This document shows positions 9,735 to 16,297 of a stretch of 32,000 nt of DNA, piece by piece. Both the position numbers and the translations under genes were made by a program. Numbering within the stretch: position 1 is the first letter of the stretch; each line of letters opens with the position of its first letter. The DNA is from Erysipelothrix larvae (GTDB taxonomy: Bacteria; Bacillota_I; Bacilli_A; Erysipelotrichales; Erysipelotrichaceae). The stretch lies in contig NZ_CP013213.1 in assembly GCF_001545095.1 (NCBI RefSeq), forward strand, positions 1,050,001-1,082,000, given 5' to 3'. A model generated the notes under the pieces. It was given only the letters and a program-made list of their open reading frames with translations, ran no database searches and had not been told where the DNA came from.

Positions 9735-10505
9735 ATGAAAAGACACGAACAACGACAACATGCACTAGCACTGATATATATGCACTTATTACGTGATGAA
9801 TCCTTTGATTCTTTGGTTGAATCTGTAAGTGATGTAGCAAAACTTGATAAGTTGATGATATTAGTAGAAGATGGGGAAGGGAATGCTATCCCTAATGTTA
9901 ATATCAAGCTGAATTCAAAAAATACAAGCACACTGTATAAAGCAAAATCAAATAAAGATGGTGTCGCTTCTTTTAACAAAGTATTAAAGGGGTCATACTT
10001 CTTATCACTTGCTGAAAGTGATCGTGAAATTTCATTGAATCAACCACTTTTCGGTGTTGAAAATGCAGTGGTACAACCTGTAGATAAAGATGATGAAGTA
10101 CAACCTATTAAACGAAAAGCAATCAGACATAAGATTAATCAATTGAAATGGGAACCCATCATTGTTGATATGCCATCCTTACTTAACGATGATGTGATGA
10201 TTCATATCACAGTGGATACGTTTATCCCATATCTTGAATTAAATGATGATTTTATGAATGTATTATATCGAATTGAAGAACGCTTCGAAATTTACCGTGC
10301 GGTTATTGATGATACGCTCAAGAAAACATGGAAATTTGAAAGACTGGGTCTAATCGAACAATCCATCCTTCTCTTAGCTTGCGCTGAACTAGAGTTTGGT
10401 GATGTTCCAAAAACCATTGTTGTGAATGAAGCGGTTGAATTAGCAAAAGAGTTCTCAGATGAGGAATCATATAAACTCATTAATGGAGTGTTAGATACAT
10501 TATGA
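9735..10505 (+). CDS. nusB: transcription antitermination factor NusB carrying a ~135-aa inserted domain
   Basis: The N-terminus (MKRHEQRQHALALIYMHLL) and the C-terminal ~85 aa (...WKFERLGLIEQSILLLACAELEFGDVPKTIVVNEAVELAKEFSDEESYKLINGVLDTL) match the NusB helices. The RBS GGAGGA lies 4 nt upstream of the start. The total length is 256 aa against about 130-140 aa normally. Confidence 0.85.
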   Translation: MKRHEQRQHALALIYMHLLRDESFDSLVESVSDVAKLDKLMILVEDGEGNAIPNVNIKLNSKNTSTLYKAKSNKDGVASFNKVLKGSYFLSLAESDREISLNQPLFGVENAVVQPVDKDDEVQPIKRKAIRHKINQLKWEPIIVDMPSLLNDDVMIHITVDTFIPYLELNDDFMNVLYRIEERFEIYRAVIDDTLKKTWKFERLGLIEQSILLLACAELEFGDVPKTIVVNEAVELAKEFSDEESYKLINGVLDTL

Positions 10506-11899
10506 TGAATAATCCAGTGTCAGTCAGTGAATTTTTATCAGTCGTAAAGGGAATCGTCTCAGACATTCCCTTATTTCAAAATGTCATATTAGTAGGCGAG
10601 TTGTCAAATTTCAAAGCGCATTCTAGTGGACATTTTTATTTTTCACTGAAGGACGATAAAGCGCGTATCTCTGCAGTAATGTTTCGATCCCAGGCACAGT
10701 CTGTATTATTTAAACCAAAAGATGGCGATAAAGTCATCATTCAAGGGCGCTTTGATGTTTATCCGCAAACTGGACAAATGCAAGTTTATGTTTCCAAGAT
10801 GAACTTGGATGGATTGGGTGATCTCTACATCCAATATGAAGCGCTCAAAAAAGAACTCGAAGAAAAAGGATATTTCCAGAGTTCACATAAAAAGAGTCTT
10901 CCACCATACCCACAAAGAATTGGTGTTATCTGTGGAGCGGGGAGTGCAGCTCATGCAGATATTACACGAACATTAAGAAGCCGATGGCCCTTAGCAGAAC
11001 AAGTCGATTTATTCTCCCTTGTTCAAGGGGATGGTGCAACCCAAGATCTTGTGACAAAGATTGAATTTGCAGATGAGATGGGACTAGATGTTATTATCTT
11101 AGCTCGAGGCGGCGGAAGTATCGAAGATTTGTGGGCTTTTAACACAATTCCAGTGATTATGGCTGTATACAATTGCAAAACACCAATTGTTACTGGAATT
11201 GGCCATGAAAGCGACACTACTTTGTCAGACTATGTAGCGGATTATCGAGCAGCTACTCCAACTGGAGCTGCTCATGAAGTGACACCTGATACACAAGAAA
11301 TACGGATTACTTTGAAGAAGGTTGATCGTGCAAATATCATGAGTATAAGTCGTTCGATTGTAGCACTTTCTCACTCATTTGATACAATTAAGAACAAACC
11401 TTACTATCAAGATTATAAAACGTTGTTTAATTACCGGTGGATGGATTTGGATCGCGTCAACTATAGTTTGAATCAACACTATCAGCAATTTCAACGGCAT
11501 ACGCAGATGTTGAAACGAACCGTCGATACCATGGGTTATAACCTACAACATACATTTCAAAAACAAAATATGGCATTAGATAAAACCGTCAATCAATTTC
11601 ACATGAATATTGACTTTAAATTATCTACCGCAAGACGCGATACGATTCAATCAAATGAAGACTTAATCAGGGGAATGAGTGGGTTTGTAACCTTGAAAAA
11701 AAAGGCATTTAGTGATATTCTTAAGACATTGAGTTACCTTTCTCCACTGAATGTTATGATCCGTGGATACAGTGTATCTTCACATGGTGAAAATGTAATT
11801 AAGTCAATTGATGATATTGATATCAATGATGAAATGAATACACGCGTGCAAGATGGAATTCTTATAAGTAAAATTGTCAGAAAGGAACTAAAACAATGA
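10502..11899 (+). CDS. xseA: exodeoxyribonuclease VII large subunit
   Basis: An N-terminal OB-fold region and the catalytic-region motif ARGGGSIEDLWAFN are present. The start forms an ATGA overlap with the nusB stop. Confidence 0.92.
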   Translation: MMNNPVSVSEFLSVVKGIVSDIPLFQNVILVGELSNFKAHSSGHFYFSLKDDKARISAVMFRSQAQSVLFKPKDGDKVIIQGRFDVYPQTGQMQVYVSKMNLDGLGDLYIQYEALKKELEEKGYFQSSHKKSLPPYPQRIGVICGAGSAAHADITRTLRSRWPLAEQVDLFSLVQGDGATQDLVTKIEFADEMGLDVIILARGGGSIEDLWAFNTIPVIMAVYNCKTPIVTGIGHESDTTLSDYVADYRAATPTGAAHEVTPDTQEIRITLKKVDRANIMSISRSIVALSHSFDTIKNKPYYQDYKTLFNYRWMDLDRVNYSLNQHYQQFQRHTQMLKRTVDTMGYNLQHTFQKQNMALDKTVNQFHMNIDFKLSTARRDTIQSNEDLIRGMSGFVTLKKKAFSDILKTLSYLSPLNVMIRGYSVSSHGENVIKSIDDIDINDEMNTRVQDGILISKIVRKELKQ

Positions 11900-12099
11900 C
11901 TGAATTTAACTTTGAAAAAGCGATGAAACGATTAACAGAAATCTCTGAATTATTAGAAAGTGATACTTTACCGCTTGATGAATCGATCAAGTTGTTCGAA
12001 GAAGGACTTGAGTTATCAAAGCAGTGTCAAGATAAATTGACACAATATGAAACGAAGGTAAAGGATTTGGTAGATAAGCATAATGAATCTGTCTCATAA
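11896..12099 (+). CDS. xseB: exodeoxyribonuclease VII small subunit
   Basis: 67-aa helical protein (FE.A...L..I...LE...L.L.ES..L...G) whose start forms an ATGA overlap with xseA. Confidence 0.9.
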   Translation: MTEFNFEKAMKRLTEISELLESDTLPLDESIKLFEEGLELSKQCQDKLTQYETKVKDLVDKHNESVS

Positions 12100-12922
12100 A
12101 ATTACTGCTATAAATATACATCTTGAACAATCGGTGGATTCACTGGAAGATTCAAAGGTTAAAGAAGCTTTAAAATACTCACTTTTAAGTGGTGGTAAAC
12201 GATTGCGTCCTGTTATGCTCTTATCGTTACTTGAAGACTTAGGCGTAAATATGTCTATAGGGATGGATGCTGCATGTGCACTTGAGTGCATCCATGCGTA
12301 TTCTTTAGTGCATGATGATCTTCCTGCGCTTGATAATGATGATTTAAGAAGAGGGAAACCTACAAACCATAAGGTTTATGGTGAAGATTTTGCAATCCTA
12401 GCAGGGGATGCTTTATTAACGTTTGCATTTCAACTTGTATCTGATTGTGATAACGCAAAAGATTGCGTTGGGATTCTAGCAAAACAAGCTGGATCAAATG
12501 GGATGATATTAGGTCAAGAGCTTGATATTCTTGATGATATTCACACACTTGAAGAATTACTGAAATGTTATGAACTTAAAACAGGATGCTTATTTAATGC
12601 GTCACTTGAAATGGCTGTTGTCTTAGCACAACGCAATGATCTAAGACCTTTCGCTTCTAAGTTAGGTAGAAACTTAGGCATTGCCTTTCAAATCCAAGAT
12701 GATTTATTGGAAGTTACACAAAGCAGTGAGATTATTGGTAAATCAGTTCAAAGTGATTTAATCCGCAACAAAAAGACAATTCTCTCATTTATGTCACTTG
12801 ACAAAGCACAACTCTATTTAGATGACTTATTCAAGACAATCTTTGATTTGATGCATGACAATCATCTCAGCAATCAAAGTTTGTATGAACTCGTTAAAAC
12901 AATCGATAAACGAATTATGTAG
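12083..12922 (+). CDS. ispA: (2E,6E)-farnesyl diphosphate synthase / polyprenyl synthetase
   Basis: The first Asp-rich motif (LVHDDLPALDNDDLRRGKPT) and the second Asp-rich motif (FQIQDDLLE) are both present. The position after xseB is conserved. Confidence 0.9.
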   Translation: MNLSHKITAINIHLEQSVDSLEDSKVKEALKYSLLSGGKRLRPVMLLSLLEDLGVNMSIGMDAACALECIHAYSLVHDDLPALDNDDLRRGKPTNHKVYGEDFAILAGDALLTFAFQLVSDCDNAKDCVGILAKQAGSNGMILGQELDILDDIHTLEELLKCYELKTGCLFNASLEMAVVLAQRNDLRPFASKLGRNLGIAFQIQDDLLEVTQSSEIIGKSVQSDLIRNKKTILSFMSLDKAQLYLDDLFKTIFDLMHDNHLSNQSLYELVKTIDKRIM

Positions 12923-12930
12923 GAGGGAAC

Positions 12931-14652
12931 ATGAACAAACTGCCAGCATTTGACTTGAAAACAATGAATATTGCTCAGCTTGAGGATACGGCGTCTTTAA
13001 TATCCGACTACTTAGTGAACAAGACGCATTTTAGTGTTGAATCGCTTACTCGATCCCTGATGGTGATGGAAGTAACGATGGCACTTCACCATGTTTTTGA
13101 TGTCAAAAAAAGTCAGATTGTGTTTGATAATCTAGAAGAAAGTATCGTCCATCGCTTCTTAATGGGAGGGTATGATGATTTAACTGATTTCGAGTATAAA
13201 CATGATTTTTATCAATCCTCGCAACCGGGCTATGGCTTAGGTGTTGGTTGTGGTTTAGCCTTGGAATCTGATGGACAAATCATTGTGGTAATCGATGATT
13301 ATGCCCTTAACTATGGAACGACATTTGAATCATTGCTCCAAATCGCAACGTACAATCCAGACATGATTATCGTTGTGATTGATGAACAAAACTCTTTACT
13401 TCGCCATTATAGTTCTGTAGATTCAATTATTAAATCAGTAAGAATTAGTAAAACGTATACAACCCTTAAAAAAGATGTGAAAATGCTATTGTCCAATCCA
13501 GTTGGGAAACCTTTACTTGGAACTATGACAAAAGTTCGTGATGGTTTAAAAGAACGTATCATTGAACCAACCATTTTTTCTCAATTTGGTCTTGAATACA
13601 AAGGACCGTTGAATGGGTCAAACCTTAAGGAATGTATTCGTGCTTTTCAGGTTGCGAAAACACTCAAAGGACCCCAAATATTCCATGTCAAGACGCGCCT
13701 TCGCCGGTCTTTCCAATCAACTGTTCAATTTCCAAAATTTAAAACAGATCATAGTGTGCCAGAGGGGTATAAAAACTATCTCGAACATATCGATAATCTA
13801 TTATCAGAACGTGACGACATCATCGTATTTAATGACGTGATACGTCATCAAGATCATTTAGTTGACTTTGCGATTAAGTATCCAGATCACTATATCATCA
13901 GCAGTGGGAGTCACAATTCATTAATAGATATGATGAAGGGTTACTCTATGAAGGGAAACAAGTGTGTGCTTGTGATGAATTCTTCTGATTATAAATACTG
14001 TGCACCACATATTGAAGAACAGTTTAGAGAAAGCGATGATATCACCATCATCTTGCGTGATGCAGGACTCGCACCACGTCCTGGACGCGTAAATCAAGGT
14101 GTTTTTGATTTGACCTATTCACAAATCTTTACCAACCATATTTATATGGGGAAAGATATTGATGAAACAACAACTTTATTGCCTCAGATTTTAGATATTA
14201 CACAAGGGGTACGTATCCTAAGAATTCCAACTGGTCTAACTGGGTATCGTGGTCACAATGATCCTGTGGGATTATCATCATGGACCATACTAAATAAAGA
14301 AGAAGTCACAGAGCCTGTCGGTGTGATTTTTACCTATGGTCCAAGTGTTAATCAAATTCTCAATAAGATCCGTGTTAATAACTATCGTGTTTGGGTAGTA
14401 AACTGTACCTGTCCTTTAATTGGCGATGAAGATGTTTTGTCGGAAGTATCAAAACATAACATTCCAAGTGTCGTTTATGACTTAGAAGATATCTCAGCTT
14501 CTTTATTTATAATTGTTTCTAACTATTTAGGGATGTCAAAGTCTTCAAATCTTTCGTTGCATGGCACAAACCTAAACCTTGGATCAAAAGATTTGAAAAA
14601 CGTGTATCACTTAAATATTGAACATGCTCTTTCGATAATAATTGATAAGTAG
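12931..14652 (+). CDS. 1-deoxy-D-xylulose-5-phosphate synthase homologue with degenerate cofactor/catalytic motifs
   Basis: The protein is collinear with DXS along its length. For example, IIVVIDDYALNYGTTFESLLQIATYNPDMIIVVIDEQNS aligns to the canonical I.GDGAL..GMA.EALN..G....DM.VILNDNEMS, and FGLEYKGPLNGSNLKECI..FQ.AKTLKGPQIFHVKT aligns to LGF.Y.GP.DGH....L....AK...GP.L.HV.T. It occupies the dxs slot between ispA and recN. The GDG, NDN, GHQ and IAEQH motifs are all substituted. Confidence 0.8.
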   Translation: MNKLPAFDLKTMNIAQLEDTASLISDYLVNKTHFSVESLTRSLMVMEVTMALHHVFDVKKSQIVFDNLEESIVHRFLMGGYDDLTDFEYKHDFYQSSQPGYGLGVGCGLALESDGQIIVVIDDYALNYGTTFESLLQIATYNPDMIIVVIDEQNSLLRHYSSVDSIIKSVRISKTYTTLKKDVKMLLSNPVGKPLLGTMTKVRDGLKERIIEPTIFSQFGLEYKGPLNGSNLKECIRAFQVAKTLKGPQIFHVKTRLRRSFQSTVQFPKFKTDHSVPEGYKNYLEHIDNLLSERDDIIVFNDVIRHQDHLVDFAIKYPDHYIISSGSHNSLIDMMKGYSMKGNKCVLVMNSSDYKYCAPHIEEQFRESDDITIILRDAGLAPRPGRVNQGVFDLTYSQIFTNHIYMGKDIDETTTLLPQILDITQGVRILRIPTGLTGYRGHNDPVGLSSWTILNKEEVTEPVGVIFTYGPSVNQILNKIRVNNYRVWVVNCTCPLIGDEDVLSEVSKHNIPSVVYDLEDISASLFIIVSNYLGMSKSSNLSLHGTNLNLGSKDLKNVYHLNIEHALSIIIDK

Positions 14653-14659
14653 GTGACGT

Positions 14660-16297
14660 ATGTTAGTAAATTTATATATCAAGAATTATATTTTGATTCA
14701 AGAATTATCTGTTTCACTTTCAGATCGTTTTAATGTCTTTACTGGAGAAACAGGTGCAGGAAAATCTCTTGTCGTTGATGCGCTTAATTTTGTAACCGGT
14801 GAACGAAGCAAAAGTTCGGTAGTTGGGAAACACGGAAACCGAGCACTTGTTGAGGCATCGTTTTCAGTGAGTCCAACATCATCTTTTTATAAAGAACTCG
14901 AATTATTGGGATACATTGAATCCGAAGATGATTTAGTGATTGTTTCACGCGAAATTTCAAAAGATGGACGGAATGTATGTCGAATCAACGGAAGAACGGT
15001 TAATGTTTCAACAATGAAAGATGTCTTATCAAAGACACTGGATATTCATTCACAACATGAAACACAATATCTCCTCAATACAACACACCAACTCAAACTC
15101 CTCGATATGTATCTTAACGATTCAAAATACCTCCAACACTATCAAGAAACTTTTCACAAATATAAGCAAATTGTTGATGAGATTCACCGACTTAAAACCA
15201 CGACATTATCTGGTTATGAGCTTGAATTCGCGAAAACACAACTCAATGAAATTGAAGCATTTAAGCCGTCAAGTGATGAGTATGAAGCGATTCGGCTTGA
15301 AATCAAACAACTCGATGATTATGAAAAGAATAAATCCTTGCTAAATGACATTGAATCCACACTAACGGGTTCTAAAGATGTTTTAGGATCACTTTTCAGT
15401 ATTAAAGATCATTTTAATATGCTTTCTGATTTAAAAGAAGGGTTTGATGATGTCTATTATCGTTTAGAAGACATATCCTATCAAGTATCAAAAATAAATA
15501 GTGAAACATCCTTCGACGCAATTGTCTATGAAAAACTACAAGATAGACTGTATAAATATAACCAAATGATTCGTAAATATCTTTCTCTTGAAGGATTGTT
15601 TGAGAAAAAGAAAGAACTAGAAACTATGATCCATGCTGTGGAACATCATGATCAGTTAATGGAAGATTTAGACATAGAATTGAAGAAGGTAGAAGATTTA
15701 TTAGCTCAAGATGCGCGTTTACTTAGAAACGCACGTGTTGATGCATCAAAACGTCTAATCCAAGAGGTTGTTGGCCAATGTCGCGACTTAATGCTTGAGA
15801 ATGTTCGATTTGATATTTCTTTTGATGATATCGACTATTCTGAATCGGGAAAAGACCGAATTGTCTTTATGGTTAGTATGAATAAGGGAGAAGCACTCCA
15901 ACCGCTTGCTAGTGCTGCTAGCGGCGGAGAACTTTCACGTGTGATGCTTGCAATGAAAGTCATCTTCAGTAAACTTCAAGGAATAACAACACTTGTATTT
16001 GATGAAATTGATACTGGAGTCAGTGGCAAAGTATCCCTTAAGATTGGTGAGAAAATGAAAACAATCTCAAAAGATACTCAAGTGCTGACAATTACACACT
16101 ATGGAACTGTTGCTGCATGTGCACATAATCATTACCTCATTGAGAAATCTGAAGATCATGACCATACCATCACTTCTGTGAAACGACTTAAGACCAAAGA
16201 ACGGGTACACGAACTTGCTTTGATGATGTCTGGAAATGAAGAAGAAGCCTCACTATTGGCTGCAAGTCAGCTTTTTGAACAAGGACAAAGTTTATGA
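14660..16297 (+). CDS. recN: DNA repair protein RecN
   Basis: The Walker A motif GETGAGKS, a long coiled-coil middle region, the SMC-type signature SGGELSR and the Walker B motif LVFDEIDTG are all present. Confidence 0.93.
   Translation: MLVNLYIKNYILIQELSVSLSDRFNVFTGETGAGKSLVVDALNFVTGERSKSSVVGKHGNRALVEASFSVSPTSSFYKELELLGYIESEDDLVIVSREISKDGRNVCRINGRTVNVSTMKDVLSKTLDIHSQHETQYLLNTTHQLKLLDMYLNDSKYLQHYQETFHKYKQIVDEIHRLKTTTLSGYELEFAKTQLNEIEAFKPSSDEYEAIRLEIKQLDDYEKNKSLLNDIESTLTGSKDVLGSLFSIKDHFNMLSDLKEGFDDVYYRLEDISYQVSKINSETSFDAIVYEKLQDRLYKYNQMIRKYLSLEGLFEKKKELETMIHAVEHHDQLMEDLDIELKKVEDLLAQDARLLRNARVDASKRLIQEVVGQCRDLMLENVRFDISFDDIDYSESGKDRIVFMVSMNKGEALQPLASAASGGELSRVMLAMKVIFSKLQGITTLVFDEIDTGVSGKVSLKIGEKMKTISKDTQVLTITHYGTVAACAHNHYLIEKSEDHDHTITSVKRLKTKERVHELALMMSGNEEEASLLAASQLFEQGQSL

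Follow-up and report, generated by a model that had tools for sequence, protein, structure and literature searches.

The synthase of 1-deoxy-D-xylulose 5-phosphate (DXS; EC 2.2.1.7) has been studied intensively as an antibacterial target and is taken to serve a single function. The nearest described precedent for the gene reported here is class 3 of the plant DXS-like proteins (DXS3, e.g., tomato SlDXS3), which have no DXS activity and whose function is unknown (PMC10675008). In the papers searched on DXS, mevalonate, and isoprenoids in Erysipelothrix, on DXS pseudoenzymes, and on DXS moonlighting, no dead bacterial DXS or bacterial DXS pseudoenzyme was found. Here, we report on a stretch of 32,000 nucleotides from the Erysipelothrix larvae genome (contig NZ_CP013213.1, positions 1,050,001–1,082,000; "the window"), in which an open reading frame (ORF) between ispA and recN encodes a protein that descends from the DXS family and is not a DXS enzyme by any functional criterion tested. 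We consider it likely that this descendant of the dxs gene of the slot, termed pseudo-DXS here, is now a pseudoenzyme whose role is non-catalytic binding, which may have been inherited from the ancestral DXS.

The pseudo-DXS resembles canonical DXS in its three-domain fold and domain order, its slot after ispA, and a basic loop of ∼60 residues in domain I, and the two share many structural residues, including E162, F243, Y250-G252-P253, H279, G422, D436, E456, and R475. It differs from canonical DXS in its score (147 bits against a cut-off of 466 bits), in the loss of GDG/NDN, His49, His80, His299, Glu370, Arg398, His431, and Arg478, in the deletion of two active-site loops, and in a host that has no downstream methylerythritol phosphate (MEP), thiamin, or pyridoxal phosphate enzyme that uses 1-deoxy-D-xylulose 5-phosphate (DXP). 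The plant DXS3 proteins arose independently: the pseudo-DXS nests among the DXS of the same slot in Erysipelotrichaceae, in a tree that contained no plant sequences. Furthermore, DXS3 proteins occur in plants beside active DXS1 and DXS2 and a functioning MEP pathway, whereas the pathway is gone in the present genome. A third point of comparison is the short PRK12315-type DXS (NF008968), which belongs to the same superfamily and has a similar length (585 vs. 573 aa) but shows the opposite arrangement, with every catalytic motif and no loop. What is new here is an orphan canonical DXS of the latter type, a regional selection profile together with an argument from the loop, and, across the family, the recurrent, independent loss of catalysis, with clean deletion of the gene as the alternative outcome.

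Descent from DXS and state of the former active site

The only Pfam domain detected in the 573-aa protein was DXP_synthase_N (134.9 bits). Transket_pyr and Transketolase_C gave no score because the sequence is too diverged, so profile and fold comparisons were needed to show domains II and III. The curated DXS models also remained below their cut-offs: TIGR00204 scored 146.8 against 465.95 bits, NF003933 scored 128.3 against 395 bits, and NF008968 scored 91.7 against 510 bits. The best solved relative by sequence was Escherichia coli DXS (2O1S, E = 1.7e-27), and when a profile of 27 family members was compared with E. coli DXS in hhalign, 546 columns spanning all three domains were aligned with a probability of 99.95%. 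An AlphaFold (AF2) model built on the family alignment had a mean predicted local distance difference test score (pLDDT) of 79, with low confidence at residues 154–211 and 263–274 only, and the top 50 matches of this model in a Foldseek search of the PDB were all DXS (template modeling score, 0.64–0.71). At the level of the predicted model, the three-domain DXS fold (PP, Pyr, and C-terminal domains) was thereby shown to be retained. The protein is 46–53 aa shorter than the DXS of its relatives (619–626 aa); the original prediction had estimated a shortfall of about 50–60 aa. Most of this gap consists of two 13-aa deletions, at E. coli residues 97–109 and 288–299. In canonical DXS, these two stretches are conserved loops of the active site; the second deletion removes His299.

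The original prediction had placed a DXS homologue in a conserved xseAB-ispA-dxs-recN slot, and both the homology and the slot were borne out. The gene order nusB-xseA-(xseB)-ispA-DXS-recN(-dinB) was kept in 41 of the 41 genomes of the order that were examined. When the family profile was run against 201 genomes of the order, 576–812 bits were reached only in Erysipelothrix (all eight genus-mates and the present genome), and the other genera, with DXS of 611–645 aa, scored ≤ 326 bits. In the DXS tree, the Erysipelothrix clade was nested inside the slot-DXS clade of its own family, and the nearest named homologues were those of E. rhusiopathiae, E. piscisicarius, and E. amsterdamensis. On the grounds of position and sequence phylogeny, the ORF is shown to be the vertical, positional descendant of the ispA-recN dxs gene of the order.

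When the protein was aligned with E. coli DXS, the numbering of which is used below for reference, 19–20 of the 22 key positions differed, and most of these also varied among the 27 family members. His49 is replaced by Ser; His80, which binds the diphosphate of thiamin diphosphate (ThDP) in DXS, is replaced by Glu in the DNLEE that stands for DVGHQ; GHSSTS is absent and aligns with SSQPGY (residues 96–101), with Ser-Gln-Pro at Gly121-His122-Ser123; Tyr392, Phe395, and Arg398 are replaced by Asn, Asp, and Tyr; and Asp427, His431, and Arg478 are replaced by Pro, Asn, and Thr, the last at residue 434. The ThDP-Mg motif GDG-x(25–30)-NDN was not found. Its counterpart, DDY...IDE, keeps the same 28-residue spacing, with Asp-Asp-Tyr at Gly151-Asp152-Gly153 and Ile-Asp-Glu at Asn179-Asp180-Asn181. 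Gly151, Gly153, Asn179, and Asn181 are replaced throughout the family, and Asp152 and Asp180 are the sole survivors among these cofactor and substrate residues. These degenerate motifs had been recognized in the original prediction. It had also reported the loss of the cofactor-activating Glu, which is correct, but had assigned it to an E-to-Q change in DVIRHQDHLV, which is not: these residues (302–311) align with E. coli residues 344–353 and not with DVAIAEQHAV, and the counterpart of Glu370 is His328.

The former active site is variable within the family. The Glu370 position is occupied by Y, I, V, P, T, or H and the Gly153 position by Y, F, N, H, or T, and no new conserved catalytic-looking constellation was found at the old active site among the 27 members. 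The alignment shows that the protein has lost the ThDP-Mg motif, the Glu that activates the cofactor, the His residues of catalysis and diphosphate binding, and the Arg, Asp, and His residues that bind glyceraldehyde 3-phosphate, and it is very likely that the protein can neither bind ThDP nor make DXP. It could still be an enzyme with a new chemistry or ligand, for example a binder or sensor of prenyl diphosphates (isopentenyl diphosphate [IPP], dimethylallyl diphosphate, or farnesyl diphosphate) at a vestigial Mg-diphosphate site, acting alongside IspA. Asp152 and Asp180 are kept, Asn181 is Glu in 18 of the 27 members, the new invariant residues Asn127 and Thr131 (LNYGxT) lie beside the old diphosphate site, the ratio of nonsynonymous to synonymous substitution rates (dN/dS) is lowest around that site, and translational coupling of the gene to ispA is constant. 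However, the pocket residues vary as described above, Asn181 is P, T, A, or D in the other 9 members, and other dead lineages (i.e., those that lost the catalytic residues) have His, Asn, or Glu in place of Asp152. With no new constellation of catalytic appearance, we regard this explanation as rather unlikely.

The loss of the active site has a counterpart in the metabolism predicted from the genome, as the original prediction had suspected. The assembly is 99.93% complete, and the positive controls for the pathway searches were seen in reference genomes; nevertheless, dxr, ispF, ispG, ispH, thiG, and pdxJ were not found in it. The ThiG candidates were partial matches of only 20–23 bits, which we read as unrelated barrels and not as a thiazole synthase. 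The mevalonate pathway was complete, with HMGS, HMGR, mvk, mvaD, pmk, and fni all over the curated cut-offs: mevalonate kinase, diphosphomevalonate decarboxylase, phosphomevalonate kinase, and type-2 IPP isomerase form one operon, and HMG-CoA reductase and HMG-CoA synthase are also present. The gene content shows that IPP is predicted to be made through the mevalonate pathway and that no enzyme known to use DXP is encoded. One ispE homologue (L012:1216-2172, corresponding to G000:C1:39989-40945), which adjoins a glmU-like gene, scored 144.5 bits with TIGR00154 against a cut-off of 138.7 bits; the remainder of the MEP pathway is missing, which leaves this homologue as a second orphan relic.

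A second DXS of canonical type (DXS2) is encoded elsewhere in the genome, outside the window (C1:511730-513487, corresponding to L001:907-2664). It has 585 aa with every motif intact, scored 785.8 bits with the PRK12315 subfamily model, lacks the mobile loop of domain I, and is 18% identical to the pseudo-DXS. Across the genus (28 species representatives), DXS2 alone exceeds the TIGR00204 cut-off. Judged from its intact enzyme motifs and from a genome with no known DXP consumer, DXS2 is an orphan. The neighboring genes encode a surface protein of 2166 aa and a DegV-like protein. A seemingly broken DXS2-type gene in genome G209, a TIGR00204 fragment with a stop codon, was only 24.5% identical to DXS2 and was dropped. 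The coexistence of the two proteins raises the possibility that the pseudo-DXS is a regulatory or heterodimer partner of DXS2, and their patterns are complementary in that one lacks the loop and the other retains it; furthermore, two other genera (g17 and g37, below) likewise have both a dead copy in the slot and a canonical one. Against this, a DXS over the cut-off is absent from all 27 other species representatives, and yet they retain the dead copy under equal selection; the two proteins share little identity; and the genome has no DXP-consuming enzyme on which such regulation could act. We therefore hold such a partnership to be very unlikely.

Purifying selection and the basic loop of domain I

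In every genus-mate locus that was examined, the reading frame is open, although identity falls to 36–39%. The overall dN/dS of the pseudo-DXS was 0.049–0.063, and every domain was below 0.2. In the pair G160-G188 (G-codes denote genomes; dS 0.56), dN/dS was 0.049 for the pseudo-DXS, 0.034 for ispA, and 0.091 for recN; in the pair G160-G168 (dS 1.36), the corresponding values were 0.050, 0.067, and 0.075. Across the pairs compared (dS 0.56–1.36), the pseudo-DXS ranged over 0.049–0.052, ispA over 0.034–0.067, and recN over 0.074–0.091, i.e., purifying selection on the pseudo-DXS is as strong as on ispA. On the DXS tree, the stem of the genus measured 1.11 substitutions per site, ∼3.5 times the 0.31 found with the neighboring genes, and the branch lengths of the pseudo-DXS within the genus equaled those of the neighboring genes.

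These values bear on whether the ORF is a decaying relic without protein function, kept open only for translation through to recN and dinB. In favor of this, the ORF is separated from ispA by 8 nt and from recN by 7 nt, no site resembling a promoter or terminator is prominent near it (the counts of such sites were not above those of shuffled controls), and domain III evolves faster than the rest. However, a dN/dS of ∼0.05 means that the amino-acid sequence itself is selected, which rules out decay; the frame has stayed open across the divergence within the genus, and other lineages have removed the gene cleanly and joined ispA to recN. A relic is thus extremely improbable. The pseudo-DXS combines clear homology to an enzyme family, loss of catalytic and cofactor residues, and purifying selection on the protein, and the suggestion that it is a pseudoenzyme or a repurposed protein agrees with the lost and variable residues, the fold kept in the model, and the strong selection. 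Because selection acts so strongly on a protein without the catalytic residues or the pathway, and keeps the dead DXS as tightly as its housekeeping neighbors, the protein must do some other job.

The regional profile indicates where this job may reside. Over most of residues 121–290, which take in the former ThDP motif as well as the loop and the next sheet, dN/dS was 0.003–0.02, and it was higher in domains II and III (Table 1). The loop (residues 154–211), where pLDDT was below 50 in the AF2 model, is one of the best-conserved segments in the family (conservation 0.70, compared with 0.585 overall). The motif R-x-S-x-x-Y-x-x-x-K-x-D-x-K-x-x-L...K is common to the canonical slot DXS of the relatives and to most of the other dead lineages. 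All slot DXS, whether dead or canonical, have a loop of constant length (60–63 residues) and constant net charge (+3 to +10), in a protein that is otherwise acidic. The active-site loops were deleted and the basic loop was kept, which is the opposite of the pattern in DXS2. In Pseudomonas aeruginosa DXPS, the equivalent loop is described as poorly conserved and as lying outside the active site, and when it was exchanged for six glycines the kinetics were comparable (PMC10504544). The loop would be the best available pointer to the site of the retained function. The isoelectric point and net charge of the whole protein were alike in the dead and canonical copies, so that bulk charge does not point to binding of nucleic acids or membranes.

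Recurrent loss of catalysis in Erysipelotrichaceae

The slot DXS lost its catalytic residues and kept its full length in at least four lineages of the family: g1 (Erysipelothrix; g-codes denote genera), possibly together with g30, part of g20, g17, and g37. The key positions kept numbered 2 of 22 in g30 (G100), 4–5 in g20 (G054, G082, and G170; the congener G178 is canonical), 5–6 in g17 (G042 and G058), and 7 in g37 (G162). A second, canonical dxs is present in g17, where it lies beside dxr and branches outside the order, and g37 has a canonical duplicate outside the slot as well as a PRK12315-type copy. The dead lineages resemble the pseudo-DXS in their slot, their full-length open frame, and the classes of residues lost, and purifying selection was also measured in g20, in which the dead pair gave a dN/dS of 0.093. 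They differ from it in their independent origin and their substitutions, and some occur beside IspG or a full MEP pathway.

On a tree of xseA, ispA, and recN, the dead lineages required at least four changes. A single clade of all dead lineages was rejected at a cost of 881 log-likelihood units (p-AU 7e-56), and forcing g1, g30, and the dead part of g20 together cost 248 log-likelihood units; in both cases the groups were chosen after inspection of the tree. The DXS tree was concordant, with every dead copy nesting among its own relatives. In g7, g8, and part of g5, the slot gene was cleanly deleted and ispA joined to recN, from which it follows that the operon tolerates loss of the slot gene.

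The working dxs of g17 (L072, G042:C2:31060-32904; L073, G058:C58:44642-46483) adjoins dxr, and its placement in the tree suggests that it was acquired horizontally; the ancestral slot copy has decayed. In G092 (g24), a highly diverged DXS remnant of at least 501 aa, 24% identical to canonical DXS, lies upstream of recN (L086:3122-4627) in a genome that has HMG-CoA reductase and neither dxr nor IspG; it may represent a fifth dead lineage.

We also considered whether catalysis is lost wherever the MEP pathway is lost. IspG was present in g20, g37, g47, g5, and g7 and was not found in g1, g30, g8, or g24; HMG-CoA reductase was present in g1, G170, g30, g8, and g24. The rule holds for g1, g30, and g24 and fails for g20, g17, and g37, with IspG persisting in g20 and g37. 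Since IspG persists in genomes without dxr, an absent dxr does not mean an absent MEP pathway. The loss of catalysis coincides with the full switch to mevalonate in g1, g30, and g24, and with a second canonical dxs in g17 and g37. The g20 case is explained by neither coincidence: in G054 and G082, IspG was present and no dxr, canonical DXS, or HMG-CoA reductase was detected. Several Erysipelotrichaceae genomes have IspG and no detectable canonical DXS, namely G054 and G082 (g20), G020 (g5), and G014 (g7); in G014, dxr and IspG were present, no DXS matched, and the slot was empty. This combination implies either an entry into the MEP pathway that is independent of DXS or DXR, or a failure of detection.

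Based on these results, we propose that the selected job of the pseudo-DXS is plausibly a non-catalytic binding or scaffolding role. It would be carried mainly by the central domain I (residues ∼121–290), including the ∼60-residue basic mobile loop. This second role may already have been present in the slot DXS of the ancestors while it was still catalytic, and a pre-existing second role would explain why the gene survived each time catalysis became dispensable. That DXS in general has a catalysis-independent function older than the dead copies and carried by the basic loop of domain I is a more tentative idea, which we think is possible and, on balance, doubtful. Several observations weigh against these proposals. 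First, the clean deletions imply that a second role of the slot DXS cannot be essential everywhere. Second, the canonical loop residues were kept, on average, in 2.4 of the five dead lineages, compared with 1.3–2.0 for those of domain II, and no loop-specific excess of retained residues was found across these lineages, the loop doing no better than the rest of domain I. In the g20 lineage, several residues of the loop motif have changed. Third, the inactivity of the pseudo-DXS as a DXS is deduced from its residues, and the surviving Asp152 and Asp180, with Glu at Asn181 in 18 of the 27 members, could form a residual metal site. Finally, beyond the constant adjacency to ispA, neither the sequence nor the gene neighborhood hints at a specific partner.

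Operon layout and implications

The genes around the pseudo-DXS all lie on the + strand, in the order truB, ribF, a small ORF, nusB, xseA, xseB, ispA, pseudo-DXS, recN, dinB, xerD, and deoB. The features of the operon and of the protein are summarized in Table 1. An intact ORF, a strong ribosome-binding site, and normal codon character had been described from the sequence, and all three hold: the GC content at third codon positions was 0.317 in the pseudo-DXS ORF, and both this value and its codon usage fall inside the range of the adjacent genes.

Table 1. Positions of the operon genes and of the pseudo-DXS features in the window (residue numbers are those of the pseudo-DXS unless E. coli is stated)
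Feature	Position	Strand	Remarks
xseA	10502–11899	+	TIGR00237, 400 bits
xseB	11896–12099	+	67 aa; 17-nt overlap with the start of ispA; from translation
ispA, farnesyl diphosphate synthase	12083–12922	+	NF045485, 268 bits; directly upstream of the pseudo-DXS, tightly coupled
Shine-Dalgarno sequence AGGAGGG	12921–12927	+	Overlaps the ispA stop codon TAG (12920–12922); read from sequence
DXS-derived pseudoenzyme ORF (pseudo-DXS)	12931–14652	+	Intact; 573 aa plus stop
Former DVGHQ, now DNLEE (66–70)	13126–13140	+	E. coli His80 to Glu
Former GHSSTS block, now SSQPGYGL (96–103)	13216–13239	+	Preceded by a 13-aa deletion (E. coli 97–109)
Former ThDP-Mg motif, DDY (122–124)...IDE (150–152)	13294–13386	+	dN/dS 0.01–0.04; also carries the family-invariant LNYGxTxES
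Basic mobile loop, 58 residues (154–211; SLLRHY...RISKTYT..KKD.K...)	13390–13563	+	dN/dS 0.008–0.019
Domain II, former pyrimidine-binding domain (291–440)	13801–14250	+	dN/dS 0.03–0.05
Former Glu370 site, SSGSHNS (324–330), domain II	13900–13920	+	E. coli Glu370 to His328, from the alignment to E. coli DXS
Domain III (441–573)	14251–14649	+	dN/dS 0.14–0.18; least constrained
recN	14660–16297	+	TIGR00634, 412 bits; start 7 nt past the pseudo-DXS stop codon

The neighboring ispA had been thought to remain functional, and our analysis supports this view. The first Asp-rich motif of IspA, DDLPALDNDD, is unbroken. The second reads DDLLE and not DDxxD throughout the genus, and the DDxxE form also occurs in g30, g5, and g32; since this change is conservative and conserved, IspA is probably functional. 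Two other proteins of the operon have unusual lengths. NusB (window positions 9735–10505) has 256 aa, compared with 123–159 aa in 40 relatives, and the NusB model covers residues 167–255 only. XseA has 465–496 aa across Erysipelothrix, compared with ∼416–449 aa in most relatives, and its match to TIGR00237 extends over residues 7–457 on a model of 389 positions, which implies an insertion.

For annotation, the DXS enzyme name is almost certainly wrong for the pseudo-DXS and would lead metabolic reconstructions to assign DXP synthesis to organisms that use mevalonate. For the biology of DXS, a dead copy that is kept as tightly as ispA, has arisen repeatedly, and preserves the loop with which catalysis can dispense suggests that DXS may have a second role, and it offers a natural system in which to find that role. 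If this reading is true, at least four conversions to a pseudoenzyme instead of loss of the gene would show that DXS has a function independent of catalysis. If that second function is ancient, the Erysipelothrix protein would be a natural separation-of-function allele, which may be used to find other roles of DXS, such as a binding partner in isoprenoid or cell-envelope metabolism.

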